DNA of 52,612 nucleotides from Nitrospinota bacterium (GTDB lineage Bacteria; Nitrospinota_A; UBA7883; JACRLM01), in NCBI GenBank assembly GCA_015231995.1, contig JADGAO010000001.1, forward strand, positions 1-52,612, read 5' to 3'. The position numbers and the translations under genes were made by a program. The notes beneath the pieces were generated by a model, which did not search any database, had not been told where the DNA came from, and saw only the letters and a program-made list of their open reading frames with translations. Position 1 is the stretch's first letter, and each line of letters opens with the position of its first letter. Shown here one piece after another: positions 23,193 to 39,486 of this stretch.

Positions 23193-23526
23193 AAAGCCCC
23201 CTGAAAAAAATAAACCCGCCTGGGTGCGCTTTCCAGCGTGAGCCGGTAGAGGCGTGGCGGGTGTTTTTCTGTATCCTTAAGGTTAAGTTAACAATCATTT
23301 TGAGTTTAGTCAATAGGAAAGGAATCAGGGCGGCGAGATTCGTCCAGCTCAATTGTCGTATCAGTGATACGACAATCCGCTTGTCGGAAAATACTTCGGC
23401 GAACTTGAGCATATGGGCTAAGGCGGCGTAGCTAAATCCGGAGCCGTAGTTTTGAGTCAATTCTTGCGACGGCGTGGCAAGAATCTGATCTCCGTAATCG
23501 GCGGGTTTAATTGGTTTCTGGCTCAT
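23179..23526 (-). pseudogene. 5' remnant of a DUF1016/YhcG-like PD-(D/E)xK nuclease gene
   Basis: The first 68 codons or so (…ILATPSQELTQNYGSGFSYAALAHMLKFAEVFSDKRIVVSLIRQLSWTNLAALIP) resemble the N-terminal domain of YhcG/DUF1016 proteins, common passengers of type I R-M loci. After that the ORF becomes unrelated low-quality sequence and no nuclease core is present. Its start overlaps the hsdM stop by 4 nt. Confidence 0.55.
23204..23268. terminator. Bidirectional terminator-like structure between the DUF1016 remnant and the Abi gene
   Basis: A7 run (23204-23210); outer stem ACCCGCC (23214-23220) / GGCGGGT (23256-23262) enclosing an inner GCGCT-ttcc-AGCGT hairpin; then G plus a T5 run (23264-23268). 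The large internal loop makes function uncertain. Confidence 0.3.
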
Positions 23527-25535: not shown

Positions 25536-25754
25536 AAAACCTCTACTGTCGCGGATTCGCAGGATCACCAAGTCATTGCGCGAAGATAACCTCCCACACG
25601 CAATCATCTTTTCTCAACAGGAGTCGAACTAACCGTTGGCCAATTTTACGGGTTTTGAAAACCCTTTCCCTCATTGGCTAATGGTTGTATAGCTTACGTC
25701 GAACTCCCCTTAAGATACCCATGCTATTATGGCGCATTTTACGCCATTACCGCG

Positions 25755-25830: not shown

Positions 25831-28800
25831 TCATTGATATTCCGCCCAATCCTTCCTTGCCGCCCGGTAAAGCGTCTGTGCCTGCCGTTGCAACGATTGT
25901 GGCGTAATCAAGTGTTCCTCCGCCGGTGTTGCCATCGCGTTGTACCGATAGACTCTCTCAAGGAACTTCACCATATCGGATGGCGGCGCTCCACGGCTTG
26001 CGAGTATGCGATACTCGTCATACAATGCGTTCCGGCGGTCGGCGTAGTTTTCGGATTCTCGGCGCCCCTCGTACCGCCTTGCGAGAATCATTGATGTCCG
26101 TGTCGGCTGGAATCCCACGCCTTTCATAACGGCCTCGGCCAAGGTCGGTTTAACGATTCGTCCGCGCTCATCGAATATCGCCTTGTGGCGCTTCGTCGCC
26201 AACCCGTGCGTGTATTCCGAATACGCCTTAAACGGGGCGGAGAACGCCGTGGGTAACAGGGCTTTGGGAGCGCCAAGCATATCGCCTTTGGAGAGCGCGT
26301 CGAACCCTTCATGAAAGTCCTTGATAACGCCTCCGCCCGCTCCTAAAAGCTCCCACACGTTGGAGGGTATCCCCACGCCGATGTTGGGTTGAAGCGATCC
26401 GCTTAACTGCACGGGTGTAAAATACCCGACGGCTCCGTATCTCGCCGCCCGTTCGCCGTTTTCTCCAAGGTACTTGCGTGTCGTGTCCCACCACCACTTT
26501 TCAGGATCATTGTCTATTCCAATGGCGGACAGCATGGCGCCAGCCGCCAAGACGATGCCGCTCTTCATTGGGATGGCCATCCCCCCGCCCAGGACAATCG
26601 GCGCAAGAGATGCGTAAATCATGGCTTTATAGTTTTTCCGCCTGAATCCAAGCTCGTATAGCAACTGCATGTAGTTGTGACCATACTTGCTGAAAATCAA
26701 CATCGGCTGAAAAGCCCGTCCCATCGTCCCCTGCGCCCAGATGGGCAATGTGGCTTTGTTGTAGATTCCATGCGCCCGGTCGGACGCGAGCTTGGCGGCC
26801 TTGACCGCTTCGTCATGACTCATGCCGGACTGAACGGCGACACGATAGGCGGCCAGTATGGTTGAACCACGATTTATCCGTTCAGTGAACCCGAACGGCG
26901 CCATAGCGGTTTCGATGAGTTTCGCCCATGCGTTGGAGATTTGCCCCGTCCGTGTCCGGCTGTTGATGTGGGACAAGGCTTCCGTTGTGGCTTGTGGATT
27001 CGCCCAAGCTTTTTGCTTGAGTTCGTTCAGGAGTTTGCGCTCGTTCTCCTTGAGCTTTACATCCTTGCCTGCCATCCACAGGCCGAAATCCCGTACCGAT
27101 TTCGATAGATGGCGGACGATGGCGCCAGCGCCGACTATCTTGCCTCCGGCGTATTCGTGGATGGCCGCCGGAGCGGTTGTGGGGAGCGACAACAGGTTCA
27201 CCGCCGCCGACTTCACGTTGAATCCAAGATACTTGAACGCCGCCAGCGATTTGATAAACCCCAACTGTCCGTCAATGTGGTCACTATTCCGAAGCTGATT
27301 GGCGACGTAGGACACGGCCAGATCGTAGGTCTCCGCTTCCTTGCGGGAGTCTATTTCATTTATGGCGGAGTACATCTCCCTTGCGGCCTCAGCTTTGGCG
27401 AGGCCGGAGGATAAGGACGATGCGTACTGCAACAACGCAGTCTTGGGGTCGGTTTCATATCCATGAACCACCGGCATGTCCACATTCCTGGCGATGGCGC
27501 GGGAGCGGAACCCGCGAGCCTTGATAAGGTTGGCCATCTCGATTATCAGTGATTCGTAAACCTGTTTTGTGTTCTCGCCAAGTTTTGCCGTCCGGATGGC
27601 TTCTTCAATGGCTTTCTGCGTCATAGGAATCTTCAACTCCTGATAGACCGATTCAGCCATCCGCTCGGCCTCTTGAACCGGCTCTACCTTCCATCCTTTG
27701 GCTTTAAGCTCCGCATGAAGTTTCTCGGCTTCAACGCGATTGCGATGGTAACGATACAGATTGCCGCTTTTGTCCTTCGCCCGGACGACGTATTCACCGA
27801 TCCTCTGACGCGGAGCGTATGAGCCGCGCAGTTCGCCCATTTCATCCAAAGCTTCGCGCAAGGTCAGGCGGTGTTGTTTCCCAGCGTCGTCGGCTACAGT
27901 TATCTCCTGCGCCAGCATCTTTCGGGATAACGGGTCTTTCCCCTGAAACTCAAGCCAAGTGTCCAGCGCACGGTCATAAGCCCGGCGAACCGATCTCCAG
28001 GCGTCTATTACCTCTTTGGAATAGCCCCGCCGTTCCATCTCGCCGATTGTCTTGGCTTCTTTCCACGCTGATTTGTCCGTAACGTCTTTGGGCGGGTTCC
28101 AATCCTTCGTGTCCGCCCATACCAGGACATTTTCAAGCTGTTTGTATTGAGGTTTTTTGAGTCTGTCCAGTTTGCGGTAGATTTCCTCGCCGTCGTTATC
28201 GGTGAGGAACTTGTTCAGATGCTCATGCCGCGTGTCCTGCCTCCGTAGAGCGGTGTCAATGAACCTCTTGAAGACGGGATGGTTCCAGTATTCCGGGGAG
28301 AGTAGCGTTTTCTGCAAAAACCCAACCGCTCCCACCGGCTGGATGTTCACCTCCGCGTATCCAGCCTTCCGCAAGGCGCTGGCGGCTTTTTCCGCCGATT
28401 CCATTGATTGATGCGTGTCGCGTCGTTCCGCGCCGGTCGCCGGATCATATCCAGACACCTGATACTTCTTTATAGGGAACAGCGAGTTGTATATGGCGTG
28501 GCTATATGCCAGCGTTGTTTTAACGAAATCCTCCTGCGTAGGCTTTTCGGTCATCGGCTCCGATGCGTATTTGTCAGCCGTATCGTCCAAGCCGGTGAGT
28601 GATAAATTCAGCGCGGCGGAATCAGAAGTAGCGGTCTCCTTGTTACCAACCGGCGGTTGTGGCGGCGCATTCTGATTTTCCCATGACTGTTTTAGCGCTC
28701 GTATTGCCTCCAGCATGTCCGTATGGGAGATATTCATTTTCACGCCCAGGGCTTTGGCTATGCGCCGTAAGACCTGCCGCAGTTTGGCGATAATCCATCG

Positions 28801-31800
28801 GGTGAAGCTATGGTCTATATGCTTTTCCCCCATCCTGGCTATAAGCTCGCGGGCGATGGTATTCCGCCCTTTTTCCGTGCGCCAGTCGGCTTCCTTGTAG
28901 AGTTGTTTGATTTCGGCGATTTCCTTGCGGACAACTGGATTGTTAGACCAATGGCCGAACACGTTGTCCACGATCCGTTTCCAGTCGCCGCCGAACATGT
29001 CAATGAGCCTGTCCGTGGCGCCGTGGGTCGCTTCGTGGAACAAAACCTCAAGAACCGCCCGGTTCAAGGGCTGGCCTTTGGCTGTGGATTTCCGTATCAG
29101 CCCGTCCGCGACAAGATAAATCCGGTTCGCCTTCGGATCGAACAGTCCCGATACGCTAACCATCATCGGTTTGCCGTTGACGCTTTTATTTGCGGCCTGC
29201 TGTATGCGGTTCCGCAGATTGGGCGGTAAATCATTGATGCTGTCAATCACCGTAACCGGAGCTGGCAGGTTCGGGAACGCTTTGTTCAGCCGTTCGGCCA
29301 TCTTTCGGATTTCGCGGAACCGGCTGTCCTGATAGATGGATTTATCAAGGCTGTCAAAGCTCATCTCCGGCGGTTTGTCCTCGTCGGATTCCTCCTCGGC
29401 GATCATTGGCTCGTCGTTGCGTCCGATCTCAAGCTCTTTGTCCAGTTCCGCCTGCCGCGCCAGAGTCTCATTAAGCTTCGCCTCATGTTCAAACGGTTTC
29501 CCATATTCCCCGGTGACGGTCTTTAAATCCCGTTCGAGTTTTCCGATTTCCCGTTCTGCCCTGGCGTGTTCCGATTCGAGGTTCTTGACAAGGTTTTCAA
29601 GCCGAACCGTAACGTTGACGTTTTCGCTGTTGAACGGAACCGTGAAGTAATAATCCCGTTTCCCCCGAAGGTAGATTTCAGGGTCACGAAGCTCCGTCCC
29701 ATACCCTTTACCCGCGATGGCCAGCTTGAATCCGGCGTAATTTCCTATAACGTCTTTCTTTCCCTGGGTGTTCAATCCGCCGTACTTGGAGATGATCGCC
29801 CTTAATGCGTCGTTGGCGTCCTTGCGTTCGATGTAATCACTGCCTTGAATGGCCATCGCAAAATTGTCGCCGGAGACATCCTTTCTTGCTTTGATGTCCT
29901 CAGCCACATCGTCACGGTATTTGCCCCACCACTCGATGCTTTCGGGGATGCGCTTGGATTTGCTTTGCAGGCTCCTCTGCTCATCCTGCCACGCCCGTTT
30001 CAGGGTGGAGAGCCGCCGGGCTTCTGCGTCCACCTTGGCTTTTTCCATGACTTTTGGGTTGCCGGAAGCGATGGCTTTCACCTCTGCGTATGACAACGCC
30101 GCGCCCGCCACGTCGTCTATGTTCCGCAGGTAGTTATCTCCCCTCATCACCTGGCTGATGAACCGGGCTTTCGATTCCAATGTCTGCCACATGTAAGCGT
30201 CGAAACTGCCTTCCGTGACATACCGGTATATCTGAACCTCCGGATTCTCGTTACCCTGCCGGACTATCCTGCCTTCCCTCTGCTCGATGTCCGCCGGTCG
30301 CCACGGCGCGTCAAGATGATGGAGGGCGACAAGACGTTTCTGAACGTTGGTTCCAGCGCCCATCTTGGATGTGCTACCAAGCAGGATACGGACTCTCCCC
30401 TCCCGCACGTCATTGAACAGTTCCGCCTTTTGCTGATCCCTCTCGTAATCGTGGATGAACGCGATCTCCTCTTTCGGGATTCCACGCTGGATAAGTTTCT
30501 CCCGGATGTCGTCATACACGGAAAAAGCCCCGCTGTCCGCCAGAACCTCGTCCATGTTGACTTCTTTCTTTGAATCACCGTTCTCGCCGGAGTCGGTGGA
30601 ATCTTCAGCCTCTTTTCCCTTCTTTCTTTTTTTTGTTTTCTTCGGTTTCTTGGATTTCTTCTTCGGGGTGGAAAGGTCGCAAAACACCAACTGCGCCGCG
30701 CCGGAGGTCTTGCTTTCGGCGTAGGAGCTGTCTTTGGTCTCTTCCCAGACACGATAGATATTGTCCGCCGCCCGGTTGACCTTGCTGTTTGGCTCGTCCG
30801 GCAAGGATGGATCAATCAACCGCATGTCCAACGCCGCCTTCCGCCCGTCGTTGGTCACTTTGAGCATGTTGTCTTCACGGGGGTCAACCTGTCCGCTTCG
30901 TATCCGCTCGGAACGACGCACAAGGGTTTCAACGTACTGCTTCAGTATCCCGGAGGAAGAGGCGCTCACCGTTTGAGGTTTGCCGTTCTTTACCGTCGGA
31001 ACGGGAAGGTTGAGCATCTCCGCCGTCTGGATGTCCGACACCTGCCGGAACATGCCCATAAGCTCCGGCAGGTTCACAAACTTGCTGAATCGCGTGTTGA
31101 GCCGGTATCCGCTCCCGTCCGGGGCAAGCTCCATGCTAGTCACGGCCTCACCGAAACTGGCCGCCCAGGAATCGAAATGCAACAACCCCTGACGTTTGAG
31201 CGTGTCCAGTTGCAGATACCTCTGCATGGTGAACATCTCCGCCATCGTGTTGCTCACTGGCGTTCCCGTGGCGAACACCACGCCCCCACGCCCTTTCTGG
31301 AGCCGGTTGACGTGGATGGTTTTAAGGAACATGTCGTCGGATTTGACCGACTGGCTGTTGTTAAGCCCGGCCACACGGCTCATCTTGGTGGGGAATTGCA
31401 GGTTCTTGAACTCGTGCGCCTCATCCACGAAAAGCCAGTCAACGCCCGTCTCCTCGAACGTGACCGCTTTATCCTGATCCTTCTGGATATCGCTCAACCG
31501 TTTAGCGTATTTATCTTCAAGCTTCTTTCTGACGGCCTCGATCTGTTTTACGATCTTGCTGTCCCTGCCGGACTCCCGTTTCTCCTCCTCGATAAGGCGC
31601 GTGATCTCTTCAATCTGTTCCTTGTAATATTTCGATTGGGTTTCGGCGGACATCGGCAGGCGGCGAAACGACGCATGGGTGACAACCACCGCGTCCCAAT
31701 CGTTAGTGGCTATTCTGGACATGAGAAGCCGTCGGTTCTTCTTCTCAAAATCCTTTTTGTCCGCCACAAGTATGTTCGCCGTGGGGTATAGCTCCAATAT

Positions 31801-34800
31801 CTCCCGCGAAAACTGCTCCAACATGTGGTTTGGAACCACATACATAGGTTTCCTGGCGATTCCAAGGCGGCGCAGTTCCATACCCGCTCCGGCCATCGTG
31901 TAGGTTTTGCCCGCGCCCACCACATGAAAAAGACCGGTATTGCCGGTCTGCACGATGCGCCATACACCCGCCCGCTGATGCGGCTTGAGTTTCGCCACTA
32001 TCTGCGGATTCGCGCCGGGCAGGGTTAAATGGTCGCCGGAGAACGCCCGCAGGCGTGTATTGTTGAACTCCTCGTTGTATTTGCGGGCGAGCCTATCCGT
32101 CCGTTCCTCTTCCCGCCAAATCCAGTTTTTAAACTCGTCCTTTATCTTCTGTTGTTTCTCCCGCGCCGCCTCCGTCTCTTTCTGATTGACGATCTTTTTC
32201 TTGTTGTCATCCGGGGCGACATCCATGATGGTCGGGGTTTTCAGATTCAGCGCGTCCAGAACAGCCTGCAATGCCTCGTATCTTGGCGTGCCCCATTTCT
32301 GGGTGTTGGTCTCGATACGCCGCACATCGCTTTCCACCGACCAGAACCCAAGATTGGCCGCATGATTCACCCGGATGTTATGCGGGGCGATCTCCAGAAG
32401 GCTCGCCACAAAATCCCGCACATCATCGGTGGGTATCCAGGACGAACCCAGCCTTATGTCTATCTCGCCCGGTTTTAAATCCACCGGTTGCACCGCTTTT
32501 AACGCCTCGACGTTCTCATGAAACGACGGGTTGTCCTGGGCTTTCTTTGTGGCGATTTCCAGCTTGTGGCGAACGTTGCCGGAGAGATAATCGTCTTCCG
32601 TAACCCATTCCCCGGATTCAGGGTCTCTGTATATCGCTCCTTTGAGTTCGGCGATAATCTCTTTCTCCGGTTTACCGTATATCCGGCTCATGTGGTCAAG
32701 AGCGACTTTGCCGTTCTCGTTCAACGACACGGCCAAAGCCCCCTGCGCCGTATCAACCTTCGCCACAGGCTCATGCCGGTTCACGACACGTTTGCTGAAG
32801 ATATCCGCCTTGTACGCCGTGTTCTTTTTCTTGTTGTAGTTCCGCTCTATGGAGCTTAATAGCGGGTAGTCAGGGTCTTTCCCGAAAGCTGTGCGGTTAG
32901 CCTGCACATTGATGTAACCGAACTGGTCAATGAACTGGTCATAAATCCTGTTTAGCTTTTTCCGGACGGATTCGATCTCCGGCTCGCTGGCGGCGTCGAG
33001 TTGGGTTCGCAGAACATCCTTCACAACGTCCCGAAGGCCGATCATACCCTTGATCCGTTCGGCCACTTTGCCGGAATAGCTGGTTTCCACAAGCGTTCCG
33101 TTGTCATTTATCATGATCGCGCCATCCCGGAGCACGTGCGCCCCGTTCTTGATTCGTTCGTCAGGGGTTTCCGGTTGGCGATTGTCAATTTCGGGAACCG
33201 TTGATTCCGGACGCTCGTAAACACCTTCTGGCAGACGGTTGACCGCCTCCTCCAGCGCCTCGCCAATGTCCCTTCCGCCGGAAACAAGAGTGGCCTCGTT
33301 TTTCCGGTACATCTTCCCTTCGTAGGCCATCTGCCCCAGCATCATCTCCGGGCGGGACGCAAAATATTCGTTCACCATGAACGTGTCGCCGTCCTTACCG
33401 GTGATTTCCGCGAGGTCGCGCCATTTTGGTTCGGACTTTGGTTTCTCACCCTCGGCGTATTTGCGGAGGATGACTATATCCGTCGTAACTTCCGTGTTGG
33501 CGTTCTTCTTGAAAGCGTCGTTTGGAAGACGGATCGCGCCGATAAGCTCCGCCCGTTTCGCCATGTAATCGCGGACGTATGAGTCCTTCTTGTCCAATGT
33601 CCCTTTGGATGTAACGAACATGACAAGACCGCCCGGCCTTACAATGTCCAGGCTCTTGGCGAAGAAGTAATCGTGGATGCGAAGTTTCAGTTTGTCGTAT
33701 CGCGGATCATGAAGTTTGTAATCACCGAACGGGACGTTCGATATGGCCAGATCAAAATAGTTATCCGGAAACTTGACTTTCTCGAAACCCTGTATCCGTA
33801 TGTCAGCCTCCGGATAGAGTTTATTTGCAATGCGTCCTGTGAGGTCGTCTATCTCAACGCCGGTGATTCGAGAGTTGGATTTCATGGTAGGCGGCATGTG
33901 GCCTATGAAATGCCCCGCGCCCAACGCCGGTTCTATAACCCGTCCGCCAGTGAACCCCAACCGTTCGAGGGCGGAATACATCGCCTTGATAACCTTGGGG
34001 GATGTGTAATGAGCGTTCAGGGTGGAGCCTCTCGCCGCCTCGTATTCTTCTTTAGTGAAAAGGTCTTTGAGATCGCGGTATTCGTTCGCCCAATTCTTGT
34101 TGTTTGAATCGAACGCTTGCGGTATTCCGCCCCATCCGGCGTATTTGACTAGGAGAGATTGCTCTTCGGGCGTAGCGTTGCGATTTTCGGATTCGAGTGT
34201 TTTAAGGAGCCGGATCGCGGATATATTATTGCCGAACTTCTGGTTCTGCGACCCTTCGCCGATCCGGTCGGATTCGGTGATGCGATAGCTTAATACTCGC
34301 CCTCGGTCGTCTCCTCTTCCGGCTCTTCCCCTGTTTTCAGGCTCCGCAACATGGACTGCTGGCGTTTCATGAACAACGTCTGATCCTCCAGCCTGGCTTT
34401 CAGGCTGTCTATTTCGTCTATCAGGTCTCCGATCCTGGAATTGTCCGTCTCGTCTTCCAGTTCTTTCTCCAGACTCGCTATTTCGGACTTGATCTCTTTT
34501 ATCACCATCCGTGAATTCCGAATCTCGTCCACGATCTCTTCCATGTCTTCTTCCGCCGGTAGAAGGATGTGGTTCTCCATTGTCATCTCCCAAGCCCTGT
34601 CCGCCAGATAAGACAGATGCGCTTCGGTCTCCTCCGCCGTGGCGTTGGCTGGGATCGGGTCTTCCTTCAACAGGCTTTTCACTATCGCGTCCATCTCCTG
34701 TTTCGTGGCTTCCTGCGCCTGATACGCCCGTTCCAGAAGTTTCCCCTGTCTCTTGAGCCGTTTGAACATTTGCGGCCTGTTCTCGCGCCAGTGGGTTATC

Positions 34801-36990
34801 GCCAACTGGCCCATCTGATCGAGCTTGATTTGGGTTTGCGCCGTTTTGTTTGTCATGTTCCGATGCCTCCCTCGTAATAATATCGGCCTTTGTTCCGGAA
34901 TAATCAATGGGAACTACTGCGTATTTTCCATTTTCTTTTGGATGCTCAATCACCTTGCTGGGCGCGCCTGATTTCATTTTCCGGTTGGCCTGCATGATCG
35001 CAAGACCTTTGGGCAACGGTTGTGCTTCTGGAGTGACCGAAGAGCCGGGATTCACGTTTTGTGTAGCCTGATTGCCCGTAGAATCGGAAACATTCGGGGA
35101 TTCAATCTTCGCTTTCACCGTGTCAAGACGGCGATTAGGAAACACCATCCCACTCCGTTTATCGTTCCATATACCGCCCAACCCAAGAGATTTGATGGAA
35201 TCCTTGTCGCCTTTAAGGACAAACTCCTTATCTGAAATCTCCTCTATCCCGTAACCGCTGGCCGGTTGATTCGGGCTGGCGGAAACCGAAGATTCCGATG
35301 CGGCGCCGGTGGATGGTTTTCCCGGTCGCACGTATTCGATCTTTATTCCCGATTGGCGGATAGCTTCCTGCGTCTCCGCTCTTTTCTTGTATAACTTTTC
35401 AAGTTCAGGATCGGTTTGCGTTGTTGACGATTTAATGGTGGAAGGTGATTCCGTCGCGTCAACGTATCGTGTAGTGGGACTCGTTTTGTTTTCAGGGATA
35501 GCGCCGGGTATAACGCCAGTCGTGTCGTCTTTCTTGAGGATCGCGCCGGTTCCCAGTTGGCCGTAATTGTCTTTATGTTCGACTTGCGTTCCTGGCTTTA
35601 GAGAGTCCTCCGTAGGTTGAACGTCGGTGATAGCCGTGTCCTGTATCGTATTGCGTGTTTTGTTTTCGGCTTTGAGCGCCGTGGGTTCTTCAGGGGTATT
35701 GGCTTGAGGTTCTGGTTTCGAGGTTACAGGCTGTGTTTCTTGTGCGAAGCTATCCTCATTGACCGGTTCAGGCGTTGCCGCCTGATCGCTGGTTCCGGCG
35801 GATGAGGTTGGTTCTTCTAAAATGGATTTCGCGCCAGATATGGAGATACCGCCTGGTTTCCCGCTCTCGTCAGCCTGCTTTAGCTTTTCCTTTGAAACTG
35901 CGGGTTCTGGCTCGGCCTCCTGCGAAACCGCATCCTTCGCCTTGGCCAATCCCGATGGCGTGACATAAACCCGAAACTGGCCTTCTTTCCCTTTATGAAG
36001 CGGATTGATCTTCAGGTCTTCGTTGCGAAATCCCTCCGTGATGATCTTTTCCTTGATGAACTCCTGCGCGGCTCGCAGTGAATGAAACGCCCGGTCGTCA
36101 AAGCTCTTGAGGGAGTTCCTGGTGTATCGCCCAGCGCCTTGCGGAGATTCCCCTGATTCCGGCTGTTCCGGCGGCGCCTCGTTAGCTTTATCCCGCTCTT
36201 CCCCGGAAACAGCGCTAGTTTCCGTTTTTGGCTCCGGCAAGAGTTTTACGTTCCGTTCTGAACGTTGCGGCAATGCGCCCACCGCCAACGGCTCGCCACG
36301 AGTCATCCGCCACGCATACCTTATTGCGTCCTCTTCGTTGTATCCTCTTGAAAAAAGCTCGTTGAATATGCGTTCCGCCGTAGTATCCAGTGTCACGCCG
36401 TCATCCGCCGGATTAACCGCGCCCGCCGCCGATTCTTCGGCTACTTTTCTGGCAAGGCCAATCTTGGTCAATGCGGTGACACCGGATCGGTAGGGAACCA
36501 TTGCGTTGGATACCGCGCTTACAGCCGACTTCTCCGGCAGATAACCGGCTATTGGCGTGTTTTGCGGGGAGGGAATGTTCTCGGCGTTATTTCCAGTTTC
36601 CGTCCGCCTTGCTTTACCGTGCAATACTGCGCCGGTTCCGCCGCCCAAAAGACCTCCAGCCAACCCGCCAGTCACAGACTGGTTCAACACGTCTTCATCC
36701 CATTGTTTCGTGGGATCAACATACTTCTGTTCGGCGAGATTCTGGATGGCCTGTTCCGATCCGCTCTGTAAAAACTCCTGCGCCGATTCCGCTGTTAAAC
36801 CCTCCACGGCGGACGAACCTCTCCGCCCGATCTTCTGAGCCAGTTTCCCAACCGCCTCCTGCCCGGTCTTTCCCATGATCCGGCCATATACCGCGCCGGG
36901 AACCGCCCCCCAACAACGCAGTGGACGGAGCCGTTCTTGCGAACACCTCGTTTTCCGCACGTCTCGCCGTCTCTTCCCGCGCCTGCTCAT
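25831..36990 (-). CDS. Giant polyvalent virion-type protein (DarB-like): N6-adenine methyltransferase, SNF2-family helicase, HExxH metallopeptidase-like motif and C-terminal TM-rich region; the true 5' end is probably 37582 via a frameshift
   Basis: 3719-codon ORF. MTase motifs VIEPALGAGHF and ISNVPFGD. Helicase motifs LKPHQRAGV...VVGAGKT, LFVDEAHEFKN and QREGRIVRQGN. HEATH at 29023-29037. Hydrophobic segments lie near 26500-26640. The first 28 codons or so of the listed ORF (MSRRGKRRRDVRKTRCSQ...) look non-coding; sensible sequence begins just after the G6 run at 36906-36911. Confidence 0.9.
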   Translation of the reverse strand: MSRRGKRRRDVRKTRCSQERLRPLRCWGAVPGAVYGRIMGKTGQEAVGKLAQKIGRRGSSAVEGLTAESAQEFLQSGSEQAIQNLAEQKYVDPTKQWDEDVLNQSVTGGLAGGLLGGGTGAVLHGKARRTETGNNAENIPSPQNTPIAGYLPEKSAVSAVSNAMVPYRSGVTALTKIGLARKVAEESAAGAVNPADDGVTLDTTAERIFNELFSRGYNEEDAIRYAWRMTRGEPLAVGALPQRSERNVKLLPEPKTETSAVSGEERDKANEAPPEQPESGESPQGAGRYTRNSLKSFDDRAFHSLRAAQEFIKEKIITEGFRNEDLKINPLHKGKEGQFRVYVTPSGLAKAKDAVSQEAEPEPAVSKEKLKQADESGKPGGISISGAKSILEEPTSSAGTSDQAATPEPVNEDSFAQETQPVTSKPEPQANTPEEPTALKAENKTRNTIQDTAITDVQPTEDSLKPGTQVEHKDNYGQLGTGAILKKDDTTGVIPGAIPENKTSPTTRYVDATESPSTIKSSTTQTDPELEKLYKKRAETQEAIRQSGIKIEYVRPGKPSTGAASESSVSASPNQPASGYGIEEISDKEFVLKGDKDSIKSLGLGGIWNDKRSGMVFPNRRLDTVKAKIESPNVSDSTGNQATQNVNPGSSVTPEAQPLPKGLAIMQANRKMKSGAPSKVIEHPKENGKYAVVPIDYSGTKADIITREASEHDKQNGANPNQARSDGPVGDNPLAREQAANVQTAQETGETSGTGVSGAGSHETGDGRDSEKPVEGRPDPSQRHGGGDRSASVLSGGQGLGDDNGEPHPSTGGRRHGRDRGRDSEFTDGDKRDQVRNSESGERTGRRDGQFQDRRPDRRNRQPESQAGGSDVVHETPAVHVAEPENRGRAGRGDDRGRVLSYRITESDRIGEGSQNQKFGNNISAIRLLKTLESENRNATPEEQSLLVKYAGWGGIPQAFDSNNKNWANEYRDLKDLFTKEEYEAARGSTLNAHYTSPKVIKAMYSALERLGFTGGRVIEPALGAGHFIGHMPPTMKSNSRITGVEIDDLTGRIANKLYPEADIRIQGFEKVKFPDNYFDLAISNVPFGDYKLHDPRYDKLKLRIHDYFFAKSLDIVRPGGLVMFVTSKGTLDKKDSYVRDYMAKRAELIGAIRLPNDAFKKNANTEVTTDIVILRKYAEGEKPKSEPKWRDLAEITGKDGDTFMVNEYFASRPEMMLGQMAYEGKMYRKNEATLVSGGRDIGEALEEAVNRLPEGVYERPESTVPEIDNRQPETPDERIKNGAHVLRDGAIMINDNGTLVETSYSGKVAERIKGMIGLRDVVKDVLRTQLDAASEPEIESVRKKLNRIYDQFIDQFGYINVQANRTAFGKDPDYPLLSSIERNYNKKKNTAYKADIFSKRVVNRHEPVAKVDTAQGALAVSLNENGKVALDHMSRIYGKPEKEIIAELKGAIYRDPESGEWVTEDDYLSGNVRHKLEIATKKAQDNPSFHENVEALKAVQPVDLKPGEIDIRLGSSWIPTDDVRDFVASLLEIAPHNIRVNHAANLGFWSVESDVRRIETNTQKWGTPRYEALQAVLDALNLKTPTIMDVAPDDNKKKIVNQKETEAAREKQQKIKDEFKNWIWREEERTDRLARKYNEEFNNTRLRAFSGDHLTLPGANPQIVAKLKPHQRAGVWRIVQTGNTGLFHVVGAGKTYTMAGAGMELRRLGIARKPMYVVPNHMLEQFSREILELYPTANILVADKKDFEKKNRRLLMSRIATNDWDAVVVTHASFRRLPMSAETQSKYYKEQIEEITRLIEEEKRESGRDSKIVKQIEAVRKKLEDKYAKRLSDIQKDQDKAVTFEETGVDWLFVDEAHEFKNLQFPTKMSRVAGLNNSQSVKSDDMFLKTIHVNRLQKGRGGVVFATGTPVSNTMAEMFTMQRYLQLDTLKRQGLLHFDSWAASFGEAVTSMELAPDGSGYRLNTRFSKFVNLPELMGMFRQVSDIQTAEMLNLPVPTVKNGKPQTVSASSSGILKQYVETLVRRSERIRSGQVDPREDNMLKVTNDGRKAALDMRLIDPSLPDEPNSKVNRAADNIYRVWEETKDSSYAESKTSGAAQLVFCDLSTPKKKSKKPKKTKKRKKGKEAEDSTDSGENGDSKKEVNMDEVLADSGAFSVYDDIREKLIQRGIPKEEIAFIHDYERDQQKAELFNDVREGRVRILLGSTSKMGAGTNVQKRLVALHHLDAPWRPADIEQREGRIVRQGNENPEVQIYRYVTEGSFDAYMWQTLESKARFISQVMRGDNYLRNIDDVAGAALSYAEVKAIASGNPKVMEKAKVDAEARRLSTLKRAWQDEQRSLQSKSKRIPESIEWWGKYRDDVAEDIKARKDVSGDNFAMAIQGSDYIERKDANDALRAIISKYGGLNTQGKKDVIGNYAGFKLAIAGKGYGTELRDPEIYLRGKRDYYFTVPFNSENVNVTVRLENLVKNLESEHARAEREIGKLERDLKTVTGEYGKPFEHEAKLNETLARQAELDKELEIGRNDEPMIAEEESDEDKPPEMSFDSLDKSIYQDSRFREIRKMAERLNKAFPNLPAPVTVIDSINDLPPNLRNRIQQAANKSVNGKPMMVSVSGLFDPKANRIYLVADGLIRKSTAKGQPLNRAVLEVLFHEATHGATDRLIDMFGGDWKRIVDNVFGHWSNNPVVRKEIAEIKQLYKEADWRTEKGRNTIARELIARMGEKHIDHSFTRWIIAKLRQVLRRIAKALGVKMNISHTDMLEAIRALKQSWENQNAPPQPPVGNKETATSDSAALNLSLTGLDDTADKYASEPMTEKPTQEDFVKTTLAYSHAIYNSLFPIKKYQVSGYDPATGAERRDTHQSMESAEKAASALRKAGYAEVNIQPVGAVGFLQKTLLSPEYWNHPVFKRFIDTALRRQDTRHEHLNKFLTDNDGEEIYRKLDRLKKPQYKQLENVLVWADTKDWNPPKDVTDKSAWKEAKTIGEMERRGYSKEVIDAWRSVRRAYDRALDTWLEFQGKDPLSRKMLAQEITVADDAGKQHRLTLREALDEMGELRGSYAPRQRIGEYVVRAKDKSGNLYRYHRNRVEAEKLHAELKAKGWKVEPVQEAERMAESVYQELKIPMTQKAIEEAIRTAKLGENTKQVYESLIIEMANLIKARGFRSRAIARNVDMPVVHGYETDPKTALLQYASSLSSGLAKAEAAREMYSAINEIDSRKEAETYDLAVSYVANQLRNSDHIDGQLGFIKSLAAFKYLGFNVKSAAVNLLSLPTTAPAAIHEYAGGKIVGAGAIVRHLSKSVRDFGLWMAGKDVKLKENERKLLNELKQKAWANPQATTEALSHINSRTRTGQISNAWAKLIETAMAPFGFTERINRGSTILAAYRVAVQSGMSHDEAVKAAKLASDRAHGIYNKATLPIWAQGTMGRAFQPMLIFSKYGHNYMQLLYELGFRRKNYKAMIYASLAPIVLGGGMAIPMKSGIVLAAGAMLSAIGIDNDPEKWWWDTTRKYLGENGERAARYGAVGYFTPVQLSGSLQPNIGVGIPSNVWELLGAGGGVIKDFHEGFDALSKGDMLGAPKALLPTAFSAPFKAYSEYTHGLATKRHKAIFDERGRIVKPTLAEAVMKGVGFQPTRTSMILARRYEGRRESENYADRRNALYDEYRILASRGAPPSDMVKFLERVYRYNAMATPAEEHLITPQSLQRQAQTLYRAARKDWAEYQ
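29023..29037 (-). other. HExxH motif (HEATH) in the giant protein, metallopeptidase-like
   Basis: Context AVLEVLFHEATHGATDRLIDMFGG. This is compatible with the metallopeptidase modules described in phage/conjugative polyvalent proteins. The assignment rests on the motif only. Confidence 0.45.
30245..31989 (-). other. SNF2/strawberry-notch-like helicase domain of the giant protein
   Basis: Motif I is near 31900-31989, DEAH near 31404-31440 and motif VI at 30245-30300. A Lys-rich insert TPKKKSKKPKKTKKRKKGKE lies at about 30612-30668. Confidence 0.85.
33435..34289 (-). other. N6-adenine DNA methyltransferase domain of the giant protein
   Basis: Starts at SYRITESDRIGEGSQNQKFGNNISAIRLLKTLE...ATPEEQSLLVKYAGWGG. 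Motif I VIEPALGAGHF. Motif IV LAISNVPFGD is encoded at 33721-33750. Confidence 0.85.
34290..34856 (-). CDS. Nested 188-codon ORF in an alternative frame of the giant gene (TnpV-like N-terminal half plus acidic coiled coil)
   Basis: The listed ORF is 34290..34907. The ATG at 34856 is preceded by GGGAGG 9 nt upstream. The product MTNKTAQTQIKLDQMGQLAITHWRENRPQMFKRLKRQGKLLERAYQAQEATKQEMD...RAWEMTMENHILLPAEEDMEE... has natural composition. It resembles a widespread small-protein family (..HWRE.RP.M...L...G.L......A.......AWEM..E..ILLP.EED). The ORF ends exactly where the MTase domain starts. Confidence 0.55.
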   Translation of the reverse strand: MTNKTAQTQIKLDQMGQLAITHWRENRPQMFKRLKRQGKLLERAYQAQEATKQEMDAIVKSLLKEDPIPANATAEETEAHLSYLADRAWEMTMENHILLPAEEDMEEIVDEIRNSRMVIKEIKSEIASLEKELEDETDNSRIGDLIDEIDSLKARLEDQTLFMKRQQSMLRSLKTGEEPEEETTEGEY

Positions 36991-37582
36991 GGGTAAGCCC
37001 GCTTGTCCGCAATTCCTGATAGACAGGGCTTTTTGATAGGTCGGCTGGGGTCATCTTGCGGATGTTCATCCCAGTGTCAGAAGCGTTTTGCGCTCCGGCC
37101 TGTATGCCCTCCATAGCTCCGAACCCAACCGCCCCGGCCAACGCGGGCGCGATTTTCATCGCCGCTCCCACTTTGGTTACAGCCGCCCCAGGAATAGCAG
37201 TGGCCAGCATGGACGGGAGGGATTCAGCGGCGGATAACGCTATGGTGGATAATTTTGGATCGAACCTTATATTGCCCTGTTCGTCGTAATCCACAATCTT
37301 GTGCCGTAACGCTCGCTGGCCTTCATTGGACATTGCGCTCCGCCAGTATTCGGAGGTCTGGTCGCCAACGCGCTCGGCTCCGCCGCCTATGTTCTCCGCG
37401 CCGACCTTTCGGGCGAGCCAGCCTATCGGCTGAACCACGCCGGAACCTACGCCGGACGCGACAGCCTTGAAATAATCTGTAACGGCGGGAGACTTTTCAT
37501 CCAGGTCGTCCAGTGTGGCGGTACGCAACCCATTCGCCGGTTCATAACCCGCATCCTGATAAGTGGCGAGCCGCAGAGCCAT
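36716..37582 (-). CDS. N-terminal segment of the giant polyvalent protein, separated from it by a 1-nt frame change
   Basis: 288-codon ORF. The ATG at 37582 follows the upstream stop directly (TAGATG), with GGGAGG upstream. The sequence is sensible up to ...FARTAPSTALLGG, encoded at the G6 run, and R/G-rich nonsense after it. The giant ORF becomes sensible (AVPGAVYGRIMGKTGQEAVGKLAQ) at exactly the same point. Confidence 0.8.
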   Translation of the reverse strand: MALRLATYQDAGYEPANGLRTATLDDLDEKSPAVTDYFKAVASGVGSGVVQPIGWLARKVGAENIGGGAERVGDQTSEYWRSAMSNEGQRALRHKIVDYDEQGNIRFDPKLSTIALSAAESLPSMLATAIPGAAVTKVGAAMKIAPALAGAVGFGAMEGIQAGAQNASDTGMNIRKMTPADLSKSPVYQELRTSGLTHEQAREETARRAENEVFARTAPSTALLGGGSRRGIWPDHGKDRAGGGWETGSEDRAERFVRRGGFNSGIGAGVFTERIGTGHPESRRTEVC

Positions 37583-38845
37583 CTATTTCGCGCCTCCCAT
37601 AATCCGTTTAGCGTCGTCACGGGTTATCTCTGTCCCGTTATGGAAGAATTTCCCCGTCTTGTCGTCAATCATCACCTGCGGCGTTCTCGGCTCCGCCTCC
37701 TGCCCCGTCCAGGTGTCTATCCATTTCTGGCCGGTCTTCATGCCCATGTCATTGAACACATCCTGTTTCTGATACCGGCTCCGTAACGCCGCCTGCTCCT
37801 TGGCGTTCCCCTCGATAACGGCTTTGGCAAGTTCCGTCTCGTTGCGGGCGTTGAGCTTTGCGATCTCTGTCTGATTCGCCCTGTTCGATCCGGCGGTTAT
37901 CATCGGCGTGTATTCGTTCAATAACCCGGCGAGCAAATCTTGAGGGTTACGCGACGACCGGATTTTCTCGGCGAGAGCTGTTGAAGTTTCCTGCTTCTGA
38001 CCATTCCCAGGAACGACGTAGGTTTTGCCTTTGTCCGCGCCTTCCTCAACGGTGATATACCCGCTGACATTGGCGCCAGGCTGTTGTTGGGTTGATTGCG
38101 TATCCCCTCTGTTTCCGGAATATCCAACATGTTCCCAATCGCCACTATCGCTTTTTTTCAGGATCATGCCGGTTTTGGGATGAACGATCTCCGCGCCCGG
38201 TTTGTATAAGGCCAATGTTTCTTTGAACAAAGAGCCTTGTTGCGCGTCGCGCTTTTTCGCCAAACCTGTTTCGGTTTTATCTTGCGATTCCTGCTTCGCG
38301 TCGTTTCTTTTCGCTATTGCATCCGCTTTCTTTTGAGCCTCATACCTGGCGCGGTCGTTGATGATTTTGGCTTCCACCGTCGGAGACATCTCCGCGTCGT
38401 GCCCCAACATTCTCGCCATACCGATACCGGCTCCTCTGGCTATATCCTCCCCGCCTCCAGCGTACCTGCCGCTACCTGAGTAGTTGAACGGATTCAAATC
38501 GCCGGTAACGGTATCGGCAAAGGATTTTGCCCCTTCAGCCAGGTTTCCAGAGCCAATGGCCGTATCAACACCCTTAATAGCGCCGTGCGCCACGGCAAGG
38601 CCGCCCGCCACGGAAGGCGCACTACGGCCAGCTATCTCCGCTCCTTTCCCGGCGAATCTTGAAGTAATCTCCGGAACTTTCTCCGCCAGATAACTCCCCA
38701 GCCGTCCAGGTTCGTATTTAGGAGCGAAACGTTTCACCGTTTCCCACGCGGTGTTTCCGGCAGTTTCAACCGGATGAACGTATGGAACGACGGAGCGCAC
38801 AGGAGCCTTTACGACGTTACCGAACTCATCCACTACGAACGGCAT
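37583..38845 (-). CDS. Hypothetical Gly-rich phage protein (possible internal/ejection protein)
   Basis: The listed ORF runs to 38854 (GTG). The ATG at 38845 has GGAGG 10 nt upstream and lies 2 nt after the previous stop. No motif recognised. It lies between the tail fibres and the giant protein. Confidence 0.7.
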   Translation of the reverse strand: MPFVVDEFGNVVKAPVRSVVPYVHPVETAGNTAWETVKRFAPKYEPGRLGSYLAEKVPEITSRFAGKGAEIAGRSAPSVAGGLAVAHGAIKGVDTAIGSGNLAEGAKSFADTVTGDLNPFNYSGSGRYAGGGEDIARGAGIGMARMLGHDAEMSPTVEAKIINDRARYEAQKKADAIAKRNDAKQESQDKTETGLAKKRDAQQGSLFKETLALYKPGAEIVHPKTGMILKKSDSGDWEHVGYSGNRGDTQSTQQQPGANVSGYITVEEGADKGKTYVVPGNGQKQETSTALAEKIRSSRNPQDLLAGLLNEYTPMITAGSNRANQTEIAKLNARNETELAKAVIEGNAKEQAALRSRYQKQDVFNDMGMKTGQKWIDTWTGQEAEPRTPQVMIDDKTGKFFHNGTEITRDDAKRIMGGAK

Positions 38846-38847
38846 GA

Positions 38848-39486
38848 TTACCACCCCTCCATGTTGAGGATTTCGTCATCGGTGTACCGGCGGGGCGCGA
38901 GTTTTTGATTCTTTTCCTCGTTCGGATCGGATATCCCGCCCTGATGGGACATTCCGGCCACGCCACTGAAAATCCGTTCCGCCGTCTGGTAATCCATCGG
39001 CATCGGGAAATCGCTTTTGTTGCGCCAGTCCTGCATATAGCTCTTGTCCGAATAGTTGAGGTTCTGATCCATCTCTCCCTGCCGTTTGGCGAGGCCATAC
39101 TGGTTCTCAATCCGTAGCCTGTCCTCAAACGATGGGGCGAGCTGGCCGTATTTTTTCTGGAGTTCGTACTGGTTTTCGAGCCTCTGCCGGTCAATGTCGG
39201 CCTGCGTCTCGCCCATCCGCCTGGCTTTCATCGCCGAAACCGTTCCCCAGGGATCGGGATCAAGAGCCGAAGCCCCGGCCATTGAGCCGCCTCCATCGCC
39301 GTATCTGCCCGCCAGAACAGGACGGGTGGGACTCCCGGCTGTCCCTTTCATGAATCCCGAACCGCCCCCGTTCCGGAAAAGCAGGTTGCCTATTCGCGTA
39401 AACCCGCCTGCGCCAGCCGAGATACTCTCAACCGGGGTTCTTTTGTTCATCCGCGCCGACAGCATGTTGCTAAACGTGTTCCACAT
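38848..39486 (-). CDS. Hypothetical phage protein
   Basis: The listed ORF runs to 39513. The ATG at 39486 (MWNTFSNML) has AAGGAG 8 nt upstream. No motif recognised. Confidence 0.65.
   Translation of the reverse strand: MWNTFSNMLSARMNKRTPVESISAGAGGFTRIGNLLFRNGGGSGFMKGTAGSPTRPVLAGRYGDGGGSMAGASALDPDPWGTVSAMKARRMGETQADIDRQRLENQYELQKKYGQLAPSFEDRLRIENQYGLAKRQGEMDQNLNYSDKSYMQDWRNKSDFPMPMDYQTAERIFSGVAGMSHQGGISDPNEEKNQKLAPRRYTDDEILNMEGW

Follow-up and report, generated by a model that had tools for sequence, protein, structure and literature searches.

The window analysed here, a stretch of DNA of 52,612 nt, carries a giant ORF inside which a second, far shorter ORF lies on the same strand in another frame, and the question this locus raises is whether these nucleotides encode two proteins or whether one of the two readings is an accident. 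Judging from comparisons with related loci, we put a probability of roughly 0.85 on the segment 34856-34290 (minus strand) being a true dual-coding segment of one mRNA, which would be read both as a frame-0 spacer of the giant protein and as a TnpV-like protein in frame +1. A preliminary description of this DNA had reported a complete gene nested out of frame and had offered, as one of three options, the overprinting of a small gene and a disordered linker; this option is supported by the substitution, homologue and open-frame tests given below. We refine it in that the small gene appears to be the conserved, older reading, and the giant linker an unconstrained reading laid over it. The features discussed are as follows.

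25831-36990, minus strand: giant ORF, 3719 aa, a DarB-like polyvalent protein.
36716-37582, minus strand: 288-aa ORF, the true N-terminus of the giant gene, in another frame.
36906-36911, minus strand: run of six G (G6) at which the frame changes from that of the 288-aa ORF to that of the giant ORF.
34290-34857, minus strand: giant-frame spacer, approximately aa 712-900, frame 0, rich in G, R, D, E and P.
34866-34871, minus strand: Shine-Dalgarno (SD) sequence GGGAGG, read directly, followed by a 9-nt spacer and the nested ATG.
34290-34856, minus strand: nested ORF, 188 codons plus TAA, frame +1 relative to the giant ORF.
34542-34856, minus strand: N-terminal TnpV-like domain, approximately aa 1-105, with motifs HWRENRPQMF and AWEM..ENHILLPAEED seen in alignments.
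34293-34541, minus strand: acidic helical tail, lineage-specific, approximately aa 106-188, net charge -13.
32491-34289, minus strand: start of the methyltransferase (MTase) module, SYRITESD...GWGG...NAHYT...NVPFG, matched at 35-59% identity by 70 viral loci and 99 phage records.

The giant ORF encodes an N-terminal module that the spacer links to an N6-adenine MTase and an SF2 helicase, together with a long C-terminal region. Its product matches Pfam Helicase_C and ResIII, weak MTase models, phrog_2206 and the DarB-like phrog_10089, is 42-45% identical to annotated DarB-like proteins, and is encoded among structural (virion) genes. It thereby qualifies as DarB-like, having an N6-adenine MTase and an SF2 helicase in a single very large polypeptide within a virion module, as do P1 DarB and the DarB-like/PLxRFG proteins of multiple thousands of residues in Bcep22-like and PEp14-like podophages, for which the name 'polyvalent proteins' is in use (Iyer et al. 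2017, PMC5512222). The DarB-like homologue of phage JC1 was found in virions by mass spectrometry (PMC9144972), and from this and from P1 DarB we infer, by analogy only, that the window's giant protein may be packaged in virions and protect incoming DNA from restriction. Unlike the window's giant gene, P1 darB has neither the N-terminal extension nor a nested TnpV-like ORF, so the feature is not universal to DarB.

The N-terminus of the giant gene is itself interrupted. The 288-aa ORF has matches to the PHROG DarB-like family and phrog_2206 that are contiguous with those of the giant N-terminus, and homologues align in frame 2 down to 36887 and in frame 0 from 36897 on. Deleting one G from the G6 run yields a continuous 3916-aa ORF from 37582. 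Given this frame break, the N-terminal module may not join as drawn, or the assembly may contain homopolymer errors. A second long +1-frame ORF within the giant gene (30264-30815, 183 aa) is rich in R, K, S and T, has no protein-like features, and was judged to be due to chance.

The nested ORF runs from an ATG at 34856-34854 to a TAA at 34292-34290. Inspection of the sequence confirmed what the preliminary description had said of it, namely a 188-codon ORF on the same strand as the giant ORF, in a different frame, with GGGAGG 9 nt before its ATG and a stop abutting the first residue of the MTase homology (SYRITESD); the extent given there is correct, but plus-strand numbering was used for minus-strand features. 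The low-complexity linker read by the giant frame over the same 567 nt, rich in G, R, D and E, was also found as described. At the equivalent position, 29 of 40 lineages have an SD core of 5 nt or more, versus 7.6% of background positions, and the nested start is ATG in 30 of the 40. We would like to note that the SD enrichment is somewhat inflated, since the strongest SD was taken from a few candidate starts and the sequence there is rich in purines. In the window and in the cultured phages that were checked, frame +1 is closed by a stop 2-17 codons before the nested ATG. Independent translation signals for an embedded gene (SD, spacer and ATG) are thus present at the level of sequence, and the small protein is probably translated independently from that ATG, for which there are no expression data. 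No internal promoter or RNA element was found for the nested ORF, and there was no Rfam match.

The product of the nested ORF matches the Pfam TnpV family (PF14198) over profile positions 18-88 of 111 with E=5.2e-6 and 26.9 bits, 0.1 bit below the gathering cut-off of 27 bits, which is in line with the TnpV-like N-terminal half proposed earlier. The corresponding nested ORFs of relatives score 144.9 (L010), 97.9 (L037), 44.1 (L072), 30.9 (L005) and 28.7 bits (L024) against the same profile. An exhaustive phmmer search with the nested protein retrieved 78 homologues, mostly 85-130 aa long (P0003, for example, at E=1e-12), and some of these are free-standing genes; the homologues that the preliminary description proposed to look for therefore exist. 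A word-indexed homologue search with the 188-aa protein returned only the protein itself, tblastn with the window's TnpV domain found nothing in plasmids and one unannotated record among annotated phages, and neither PHROGs nor NCBIfam has a family for it. The hallmarks of TnpV are present in the alignments, that is, a small all-helical protein of approximately 85-125 aa with an N-terminal H(W/L)+E.(R/H)P and a C-terminal AWE..(R)E..(I/L)LLP motif, on top of which the window protein carries an 83-aa tail.

AlphaFold predicts a fold of five helices for the first 110 residues (pLDDT 91.8, pTM 0.78), and the whole nested protein is modelled at pLDDT 92.1. The tail, whose acidic character had been pointed out before, is modelled as two long helices (102-135 and 139-175), mostly at pLDDT 91-97, with the last 20 residues at 62-80. 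A codon model favours the nested frame in the tail region too, and the nested protein of phage Mwe-JY07 has a comparable tail. The family as a whole is only mildly acidic (median net charge -3), a strongly acidic tail being found only in this phage, and the idea of a DNA mimic was rejected on these grounds. Foldseek found no significant match to the model in the PDB (best E=2.8), and its sole and best match in BFVD is a 1093-residue viral protein fragment, Q8W6J4_2, which we presume, without having checked, to be orf33 of phage PBC5. No function can be inferred for the nested protein from these structural searches.

The arrangement is not peculiar to the window. We found 53 loci (40 clusters at 70% identity) with an ORF nested in frame +1; all 44 related viral loci with a match have it nested in this frame, and a broader profile adds seven more, all likewise in frame +1. 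Among cultured phages the nested ORF occurs in PEp14, Itty13, SopranoGao, VvAW1, DC1 and Mwe-JY07, the hosts of this group being Erwinia, Klebsiella, Pseudomonas, Burkholderia, Vibrio and Microcystis. When a collection of genomes was scanned with a single classical TnpV sequence as the query, 78 of 80 loci in Firmicutes genomes were nested, 69 of them with an MTase homologue downstream in the matching frame. The giant frame upstream of the nested ORF is the same as that downstream in every locus, both frames remain open in the homologous giant genes, as the earlier description had asked to be checked, and none of the 53 nested loci analysed has a nested frame decayed by stops or indels beside an intact giant frame. 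The hidden gene is nevertheless mostly unannotated across dozens of phages and mobile elements of gut bacteria, and the embedded ORFs of PEp14, Itty13, SopranoGao, VvAW1 and DC1 are absent from a collection of 15 billion proteins. There are variants: in L006 and L081, which have short N-termini, a start belonging to the giant frame precedes the nested ORF (with an SD in L006), and a frame-0 NQLDLF motif before the overlap is common to these two and L066.

These comparisons bear on whether the TnpV-like domain might instead be part of the giant protein through recoding, by a +1 shift in and a -1 shift out, or by a start at the nested ATG followed by a single -1 shift, an explanation that we regard as very unlikely. 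The domain does sit exactly between two modules; in phage PBC5, the annotation of which has two ORFs here, the upstream ORF and the TnpV domain share a frame, this ORF being the presumed source of the best BFVD match; and L072 lacks a canonical giant-frame start ahead of the nested ATG. However, a bypassed frame 0 need not stay open, yet it is stop-free across the ORF in all nested loci, while the +1 frame is closed shortly before a conserved SD and start. No slippery heptamer was seen on reading the junctions (no dedicated scan for motifs or structures was made), no Rfam element was detected, and two efficient shifts in a single gene would, as far as is generally known, be unprecedented. The locus resembles programmed frameshift sites such as those of lambda G/GT and dnaX in that two frames of one stretch are used, but the products of those sites share an N-terminus and their zero frame may close past the site, whereas in the window a stop closes the alternative frame just before the SD and ATG that belong to it, with the zero frame open throughout, so that it does not qualify as such a site. 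The two recoding events proposed as a further option in the preliminary description are thus not needed and fit poorly.

How the giant frame stays open can be stated precisely: a stop arises in it only when T is the last letter of a nested codon and AA, AG or GA are the first two of the codon after it. In the window, T is found at 0 of 71 such stop-prone junctions, compared with 14 of 117 other sites and with 13% of such junctions in control genes. Given the nested protein and the codon usage of the phage, the probability of the giant frame being stop-free is approximately 1.8e-6, which places the pair beyond chance as a same-strand embedded pair; it is 0.0068 when the ORF's own synonymous codons are permuted. 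Across the 40 lineages, with GC contents of 0.35-0.71, T is found at 0 of 1452 stop-prone junctions and at 326 of 3155 other sites, whereas seven free-standing TnpV genes have T at 45 of 294 and each contain 1-14 stops in that frame (0/1452 versus 45/294, Fisher P=8e-37). We would like to note that combined P-values overstate independence, since the lineages have common ancestry. Nevertheless, selection appears from these counts to maintain the enclosing frame across the overlap, as stop avoidance only.

This depletion is one reason why we give hardly any credence to the view that two or three separate genes lie here, with the giant frame open by chance through purine richness and the MTase starting alone or by re-initiation. 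The nested stop does adjoin the MTase domain, purine-rich acidic coding does lower the number of stops in other frames (in control genes T stands at 13% versus 21%, some depletion), and gene callers have split the copy of this sequence in an NCBI metagenome-assembled genome (MAG) in just this way, as PBC5 was annotated. Against this stand the probability of 1.8e-6 and the 0 of 1452, and the called MTase start at 33981 cuts off the conserved MTase N-terminus. Moreover, no usable start precedes the MTase, as the preliminary description had said: the giant frame between 34953 and 33981 has no ATG or GTG, and its only TTG (34593) has no SD. The GTG codons placed there some 30 codons upstream of the MTase do not exist, the valines being encoded by GTT and GTC. 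With the frames on either side also being the same in every locus, the option of a fortuitously open frame is rejected.

Which of the two readings is constrained was addressed with L169, a metagenomic relative (JGI contig) that aligns without gaps at 91.1% nucleotide identity and keeps both frames open. Within the ORF, substitutions fall at nested codon positions 1, 2 and 3 in the numbers 15, 5 and 29; the changed codons are 24 synonymous and 17 non-synonymous in the nested frame versus 0 and 39 in the giant frame, with amino acid identities of 0.91 and 0.79, respectively. Directly downstream of the nested ORF the numbers change to 5/46/8, the giant frame now having 41 synonymous and 14 non-synonymous changed codons, and 46 of the 59 substitutions in the MTase region are at giant codon position 3. 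The N-terminal domain gives 18 synonymous and 9 non-synonymous changes in the nested frame versus 0 and 25 in the giant frame, and the tail 6 and 8 (mostly conservative) versus 0 and 14. In more distant pairs, identity is 0.70 in the nested, 0.50 in the giant and 0.53 in the third, stop-filled frame, and under the codon model the giant-frame reading over the overlap scores best as an off-frame shadow. The frame-specific substitution patterns that the earlier description proposed to look for are thus seen at both distances. Since the frame-0 amino acid sequence evolves like that of a non-coding frame, it is the nested frame that constrains these nucleotides; by these patterns, the embedded frame qualifies as being under purifying selection, and the giant-frame overlap would have no constraint at the amino acid level other than the avoidance of stops.

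For the same reason we find it scarcely credible that the ORF is a relic, a captured TnpV gene that is untranslated and merely not yet decayed. There is no evidence of expression, the function is unknown, and the nested ORFs of the five phages missing from the protein collection have never been called as proteins; but substitutions gather at nested position 3, nested identity exceeds that of both other frames, and start, SD and stop are kept across lineages whose MTase is only 35-59% identical to that of the window. A sequencing or assembly artefact, in which compensating indels shift an in-frame domain, can be practically dismissed despite the G6 frame break 2 kb upstream on the same contig, as the identical sequence is found in the NCBI MAG contig and the same two-frame layout in the 91%-identical JGI contig and in more than 50 other assemblies (IMG/VR, ENA, Logan and GenBank isolates).

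What remains is the dual-coding segment, of which sequence analysis shows that both frames are maintained and that the arrangement is ancient and widespread. In frame 0, the segment would serve as a spacer linking the N-terminal module to the N6-adenine methyltransferase-helicase module of a DarB-like virion/anti-restriction protein, with selection acting on continuity only, so that the amino acid sequence may drift while stop codons are excluded. In frame +1, ribosomes are predicted to start at the internal GGGAGG and ATG and to make a separate 188-aa protein, putatively a TnpV-family helical domain with an acidic helical-hairpin tail under ordinary purifying selection. Because giant-frame stops need a T at a nested third position, synonymous avoidance of T can keep the giant frame free of stops without any cost for the small protein; stops could not be removed as cheaply from the other alternative frame, which may explain why the phase is always +1. 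We infer that a pre-existing TnpV-like gene lay beside or between the methylase-helicase parts and that the large frame came to cross it, which would make the linker the younger, overprinted reading. The function can be inferred only with low confidence: the small protein may be co-expressed and act with the giant protein, possibly as a partner, chaperone or regulator of the MTase-helicase module or its packaging.

Same-strand embedded genes are known in phages, with lambda Rz1 inside Rz, and phiX174 B within A and E within D, as the familiar cases. The window's pair is like these in that a whole gene, equipped with its own start, is contained in another frame of a larger gene on that strand, that both frames are maintained and that one mRNA would give two unrelated proteins. 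It differs in that the enclosing frame encodes only a low-complexity, unconstrained spacer within a protein of 3700-3900 aa, in that the embedded gene carries the amino-acid-level constraint and belongs to an older family that is also free-standing, and in that the pair has been conserved in phages and bacterial mobile elements alike. Overprinting usually places a young gene of de novo origin within an old one (PMC8227390, PMC3494269), and here this polarity is reversed. Embedding of the Rz1-in-Rz type has been noted for Bcep22-like phages (PMC9144972). Our literature search (TnpV with overlap, DarB, polyvalent proteins, PLxRFG, Bcep22-like phages) found no description of the gene embedded here.

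The small protein shares its sequence family, and its small helical nature, with TnpV of Tn4451/Tn4453 (PF14198). The founding TnpV is, however, free-standing, downstream of the TnpX large serine recombinase, while the window gene is nested, its protein has the extra acidic helical tail, and the window phage has a tyrosine integrase (3263-4390). The classical context of a free-standing TnpV beside a serine recombinase was found in L166, and the same layout occurs on a Campylobacter plasmid. No serine recombinase was found among the window ORFs scanned, and a role as the recombination directionality factor (RDF) of a serine integrase was rejected given the tyrosine integrase. TnpV has been proposed to be Xis-like (PMC3158075); without a structural match in the PDB, the model gives no support for such a role.

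A broader suggestion, which we offer tentatively and think may well not hold, is that the TnpV-family genes of the sampled lineages are mostly embedded in giant methylase-helicase (DarB/SNF2-type) genes as a conserved two-protein module. The module would then be shared by phages and Firmicutes conjugative/integrative elements, the small protein would be an obligatory partner in packaging, folding or the control of activity, the giant's linker would be the product of a frame extended through the older gene, and free-standing Tn4451-type TnpV genes might derive from the module. TnpV-carrying integrative mobilizable elements (IMEs) are reported to insert into snf2 giant genes of Streptococcus suis integrative conjugative elements (ICEs; PMC9815147), and this could be connected with the embedded module.

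The finding means that a gene has been missed in DarB-like giant genes to which several papers on phage genomes draw particular attention. Annotation is affected as well: a gene caller will overlook the small gene or, where it retains it, shorten the methylase-helicase gene. Each frame can be inactivated through substitutions that leave the protein encoded in the other unchanged. The overlap is an unusual one, in which the old folded protein is the embedded one and the enclosing spacer drifts, held open only by synonymous codon choice, and it suggests a way for adjacent reading frames to become fused, by being read through the gene that separates them. TnpV genes are common near resistance genes, and with the giant methylase-helicase gene this protein of unknown function gains a genomic partner.

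The embedded gene is real, and it extends more broadly than the preliminary description could see. The claim of a complete ORF nested out of frame, on the strand of the giant DarB-like methylase-helicase gene, was confirmed in its coordinates, Shine-Dalgarno sequence and spacing:

36990 to 25831, minus strand: giant ORF, 3719 aa
34856 (ATG) to 34292-34290 (TAA), minus strand: nested ORF, 188 codons, frame +1 of the giant ORF
34871-34866, minus strand: Shine-Dalgarno sequence GGGAGG, 9 nt ahead of the nested ATG

As had also been described, the nested stop adjoins the first residue of methyltransferase (MTase) homology (SYRITESD), and the giant-frame reading of the nested-ORF nucleotides is a linker rich in G, R, D and E. 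No GTG codons stand where they had been placed, about 30 codons ahead of the MTase domain; the valines in that region are encoded by GTT or GTC. Between 34953 and 33981 the giant frame contains no ATG or GTG, and its sole TTG in this interval (34593) has no Shine-Dalgarno sequence.

The nested frame encodes a real protein, per Pfam, phmmer, AlphaFold, and a codon model trained on genes of the window's phage. The suspected TnpV-like character of its N-terminal half is borne out by a Pfam TnpV match (PF14198, E=5.2e-6, 26.9 bits, 0.1 bit under the curated cut-off) and by phmmer, which in an exhaustive search against 1.8 billion representatives retrieved 78 proteins at E<1e-3, mostly 85-130 aa long and aligned to residues ~10-105 of the nested protein. 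When run with a homologue alignment, AlphaFold yields a helical fold for the N-terminal 110 residues (pLDDT 91.8, pTM 0.78); the model of all 188 residues (pLDDT 92.1) places two long helices in the acidic tail (102-135 and 139-175), in keeping with the earlier view of the C-terminal half as an acidic coiled coil. Foldseek retrieved no significant match to the nested-protein model in the PDB. The codon model scored the nested reading as in-frame and the giant-frame reading as an off-frame shadow, in domain and tail alike. By sequence, though not by genomic context, the product is a divergent member of the TnpV family. The only other case found with a similar tail is the nested ORF of Microcystis phage Mwe-JY07 (locus L077, 6555-6951), whose C-terminal extension is rich in E, R, L and I and looks helical.

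It had been considered that the nested domain might be part of the giant protein through two frameshifts. Frameshifting finds some support in Sinorhizobium phage PBC5 (AF448724; locus L076, 5900-7133), where the giant ORF upstream (orf33, stop at 6474) and the TnpV-like domain share a frame and the MTase frame does not open until 5900. This phasing, shifted by one base relative to every other phage, reflects either an error in an old sequence or a variant that is truly split. However, two frameshifts would leave unexplained both the openness of the giant frame (frame 0) and the closure of the +1 frame, which comes 2-17 codons ahead of the conserved Shine-Dalgarno sequence and ATG in the window and in those cultured phages that were checked. 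A minor additional frameshift product cannot be excluded.

Another option raised previously was that two separate genes are masked by a fortuitously open giant frame. A giant-frame stop requires a nested codon ending in T followed by a codon beginning with AA, AG or GA. At such stop-prone junctions the nested ORF has T in 0 of 71 cases, versus 14 of its 117 other junctions, and T is present at 13% of the stop-prone junctions in other genes of the window's phage. Given the nested protein sequence and the phage codon usage, the probability of an open giant frame is ~1.8e-6; permuting the nested ORF's own synonymous codons gives 0.0068. When counts were pooled over related nested ORFs, with one representative for each of 40 clusters at 70% identity, T was found at 0/1452 stop-prone junctions versus 326/3155 others. 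Seven truly free-standing TnpV genes have T at 45/294 stop-prone junctions (Fisher P=8e-37, nested versus free-standing), and each of them has 1-14 stops in the corresponding frame. The giant frame is thus not open by chance across the nested ORF, and these statistics, along with the missing start before the MTase domain, exclude the separate-genes option.

Using the MTase domain as query, we fetched 70 related viral loci (35-59% amino-acid identity) and searched their stop-to-stop segments in all frames with a profile of the small homologues. A match upstream of the MTase domain was found in 44 loci, in every case (44/44) in frame +1 and wholly within an open giant frame, with segment GC content ranging from 0.35 to 0.71; a profile built from the nested ORFs recovered 7 further loci, all in frame +1. 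The nested ORF either adjoins the MTase domain, as in the window, or lies 0.8-3 kb upstream. In 29 of 40 lineages a Shine-Dalgarno core of 5 nt or longer stands ahead of the nested start, versus 7.6% of background positions, an enrichment that is somewhat inflated because the start was picked as the best of a few candidates. Among cultured phages, the nested ORF is found inside a gene annotated as DarB-like in Erwinia PEp14, Pseudomonas Itty13, Microcystis Mwe-JY07, Klebsiella SopranoGao, Vibrio VvAW1 and Burkholderia DC1, and the exact products from PEp14, Itty13, SopranoGao, VvAW1 and DC1 are absent from a collection of 15 billion proteins. On sequence evidence, then, this is a conserved embedded gene that is unannotated in the cultured phages examined; its expression and function remain to be shown.

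Whether the 188-aa protein has homologues, a question left by the preliminary description, is answered by the phmmer matches and the seven free-standing genes. Three of five seemingly free-standing database matches, all on short contigs, are actually nested (L072, L081 and L083), with the -1 frame continuing directly into the MTase motif. In L072 (Logan contig SRR21511348_328234, 1580-2186), the MTase frame is open from 1580 and spans the nested ORF, with no ATG, GTG or TTG ahead of the nested ATG; its sole ATG, at 1955, falls within the nested ORF and lacks a Shine-Dalgarno sequence. A truly free-standing homologue (P0004; L073, 926-1495; 189 aa, 40% identical) has a single stop in its -1 frame, which is G/R/E-rich over the first 124 codons, and this copy may have recently left the nested state. 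A classical TnpV is nested in the gut-phage locus L010 (145 bits on PF14198), the NCBI name for this protein being 'TnpV protein [Bacillota]'. Used as a query, it retrieved 80 Firmicutes genome loci, whose TnpV proteins are 85-100% identical to that of L010. Of these loci 78 are nested in a giant ORF; in 69 of them the MTase homologue lies 1.4-3.2 kb downstream in matching phase.

That the nested ORF is a decaying relic is contradicted by its substitution pattern. The 1.3-kb JGI contig L169, which encodes P0079, the second member of the nested protein's 90% cluster, gives an ungapped alignment to the window (91.1% identity) that begins shortly before the nested ATG and ends ~690 nt inside the MTase domain.

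Table. Substitutions between the window and L169 (positions 1/2/3 are nested codon positions; changed codons are synonymous/non-synonymous)
Nested ORF (564 nt): positions 15/5/29; changed codons 24/17 in the nested frame, 0/39 in the giant frame
MTase part (692 nt): positions 5/46/8; changed codons 6/48 in the nested frame, 41/14 in the giant frame

Amino-acid identity within the nested ORF is 0.91 in the nested frame versus 0.79 in the giant frame, and 46 of the 59 substitutions in the MTase part fall at giant codon position 3. The frame-by-frame comparison of synonymous variation that had been proposed therefore indicates that amino-acid-level selection passes from one frame to the other exactly at the nested stop, the nested frame being constrained inside the ORF and the giant frame after it. 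Despite 49 substitutions in the nested ORF, L169 keeps both frames open and retains the nested start, length and stop. For related locus pairs at 75-96% identity, the asymmetry matches that of L169, with identity of ~0.70 in the nested frame versus 0.50 in the giant frame, and 0.53 in the third, stop-filled frame. An assembly artefact is excluded by independent assemblies. P0079 (L169, 46-612) is labelled 'cobalamin biosynthesis protein CobT' in JGI/IMG, probably wrongly and on account of its acidic tail.

The window appears to be an entire 52.6-kb temperate phage contig, with virion genes, a primase, helicases, a tyrosine integrase and a CI-like repressor. Its giant gene encodes a DarB-like polyvalent protein with an N6-MTase, an SF2 helicase and a long C-terminal region. 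The following features lie in and beside this gene:

37582-36716, minus strand: ORF of 288 aa, the true N-terminus of the giant gene per homologue alignments
36911-36906, minus strand: G6 run at the junction of the 288-aa ORF and the giant ORF; deleting one G gives a single 3916-aa ORF
30264-30815, minus strand: second long frame +1 ORF inside the giant gene, 183 aa, TTG start
23523-25607, minus strand: HsdM-type N6-methylase (N6_Mtase, E=2e-53)
22278-23192, minus strand: gene with a match to a PHROG family whose annotation is 'abortive infection resistance protein'

Homologues align in the frame of the 288-aa ORF to ~36887 and in the giant frame from ~36897; the G6 junction represents one of three things, a homopolymer error in the sequencing, a genuine frameshift mutation or a site of slippage. 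The ORF at 30264-30815 was rejected as a gene, its product being R/K/S/T-rich without protein-like features, and was judged to be open by chance, probably as an off-frame shadow cast by a lysine-rich insert of the giant protein. The HsdM-type methylase and the PHROG-matched gene lie directly downstream of the giant gene, and this region (21513-25607, minus strand) suggests a defence/counter-defence cluster beside an anti-restriction gene. An NCBI MAG contig (L001) is 100% identical to window 33422-39273. There the gene caller retained the 188-aa ORF, began the methylase-helicase at an internal ATG (L001 5293, window 33981), which removes ~100 conserved MTase-domain residues, and left the N-terminal module uncalled (L001 2558-4418). 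Embedded genes can thus harm the annotation of the gene that encloses them.

We propose a double reading of one mRNA stretch. Its frame-0 product would be a spacer that holds the N-terminal and MTase-helicase modules together in a single polypeptide, with continuity alone selected; in frame +1, ribosomes would initiate at the internal Shine-Dalgarno sequence and ATG to produce the small protein (expression has not been shown). The spacer reading rests on the lack of a start before the MTase domain, on the homologous giant protein being a virion component in phage JC1 (PMC9144972), and on short-N-terminus variants in which frame 0 starts upstream of the nested ORF. The start in one such locus, L006, has a good Shine-Dalgarno sequence, and L006, L066 and L081 have a common frame-0 NQLDLF motif before the overlap. 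We attribute the constant +1 phase to the fact that only synonymous changes are needed in that phase to clear the enclosing frame of stops; the third frame has 15-24 stops (L018-L030 group of comparisons). Since the small gene is the constrained reading and belongs to a family with free-standing members, the younger of the two readings is most likely the linker. We infer, without having shown it, that the linker arose once the large frame read through a small gene that was already there.

The arrangement is similar to embedded same-strand phage genes such as Rz1 in Rz and the phiX174 overlaps, but it differs from these in host gene, in breadth of conservation and in polarity, in that here an old folded protein is embedded and an unconstrained spacer encloses it. 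P1 darB has no nested ORF. The embedded gene is not mentioned in a survey of polyvalent proteins (PMC5512222), in the JC1 paper, or in the other literature searched. Integrative mobilisable elements that carry a TnpV gene are reported to target the snf2 giant gene of Streptococcus suis ICEs specifically for insertion (PMC9815147). As TnpV genes are nested in such giant genes, there may be a link between the place of insertion and the 'cargo' TnpV. The constant linkage of the small gene to the methylase-helicase gene suggests, with low confidence and with function only inferred, that the small protein works together with the methylase-helicase protein.
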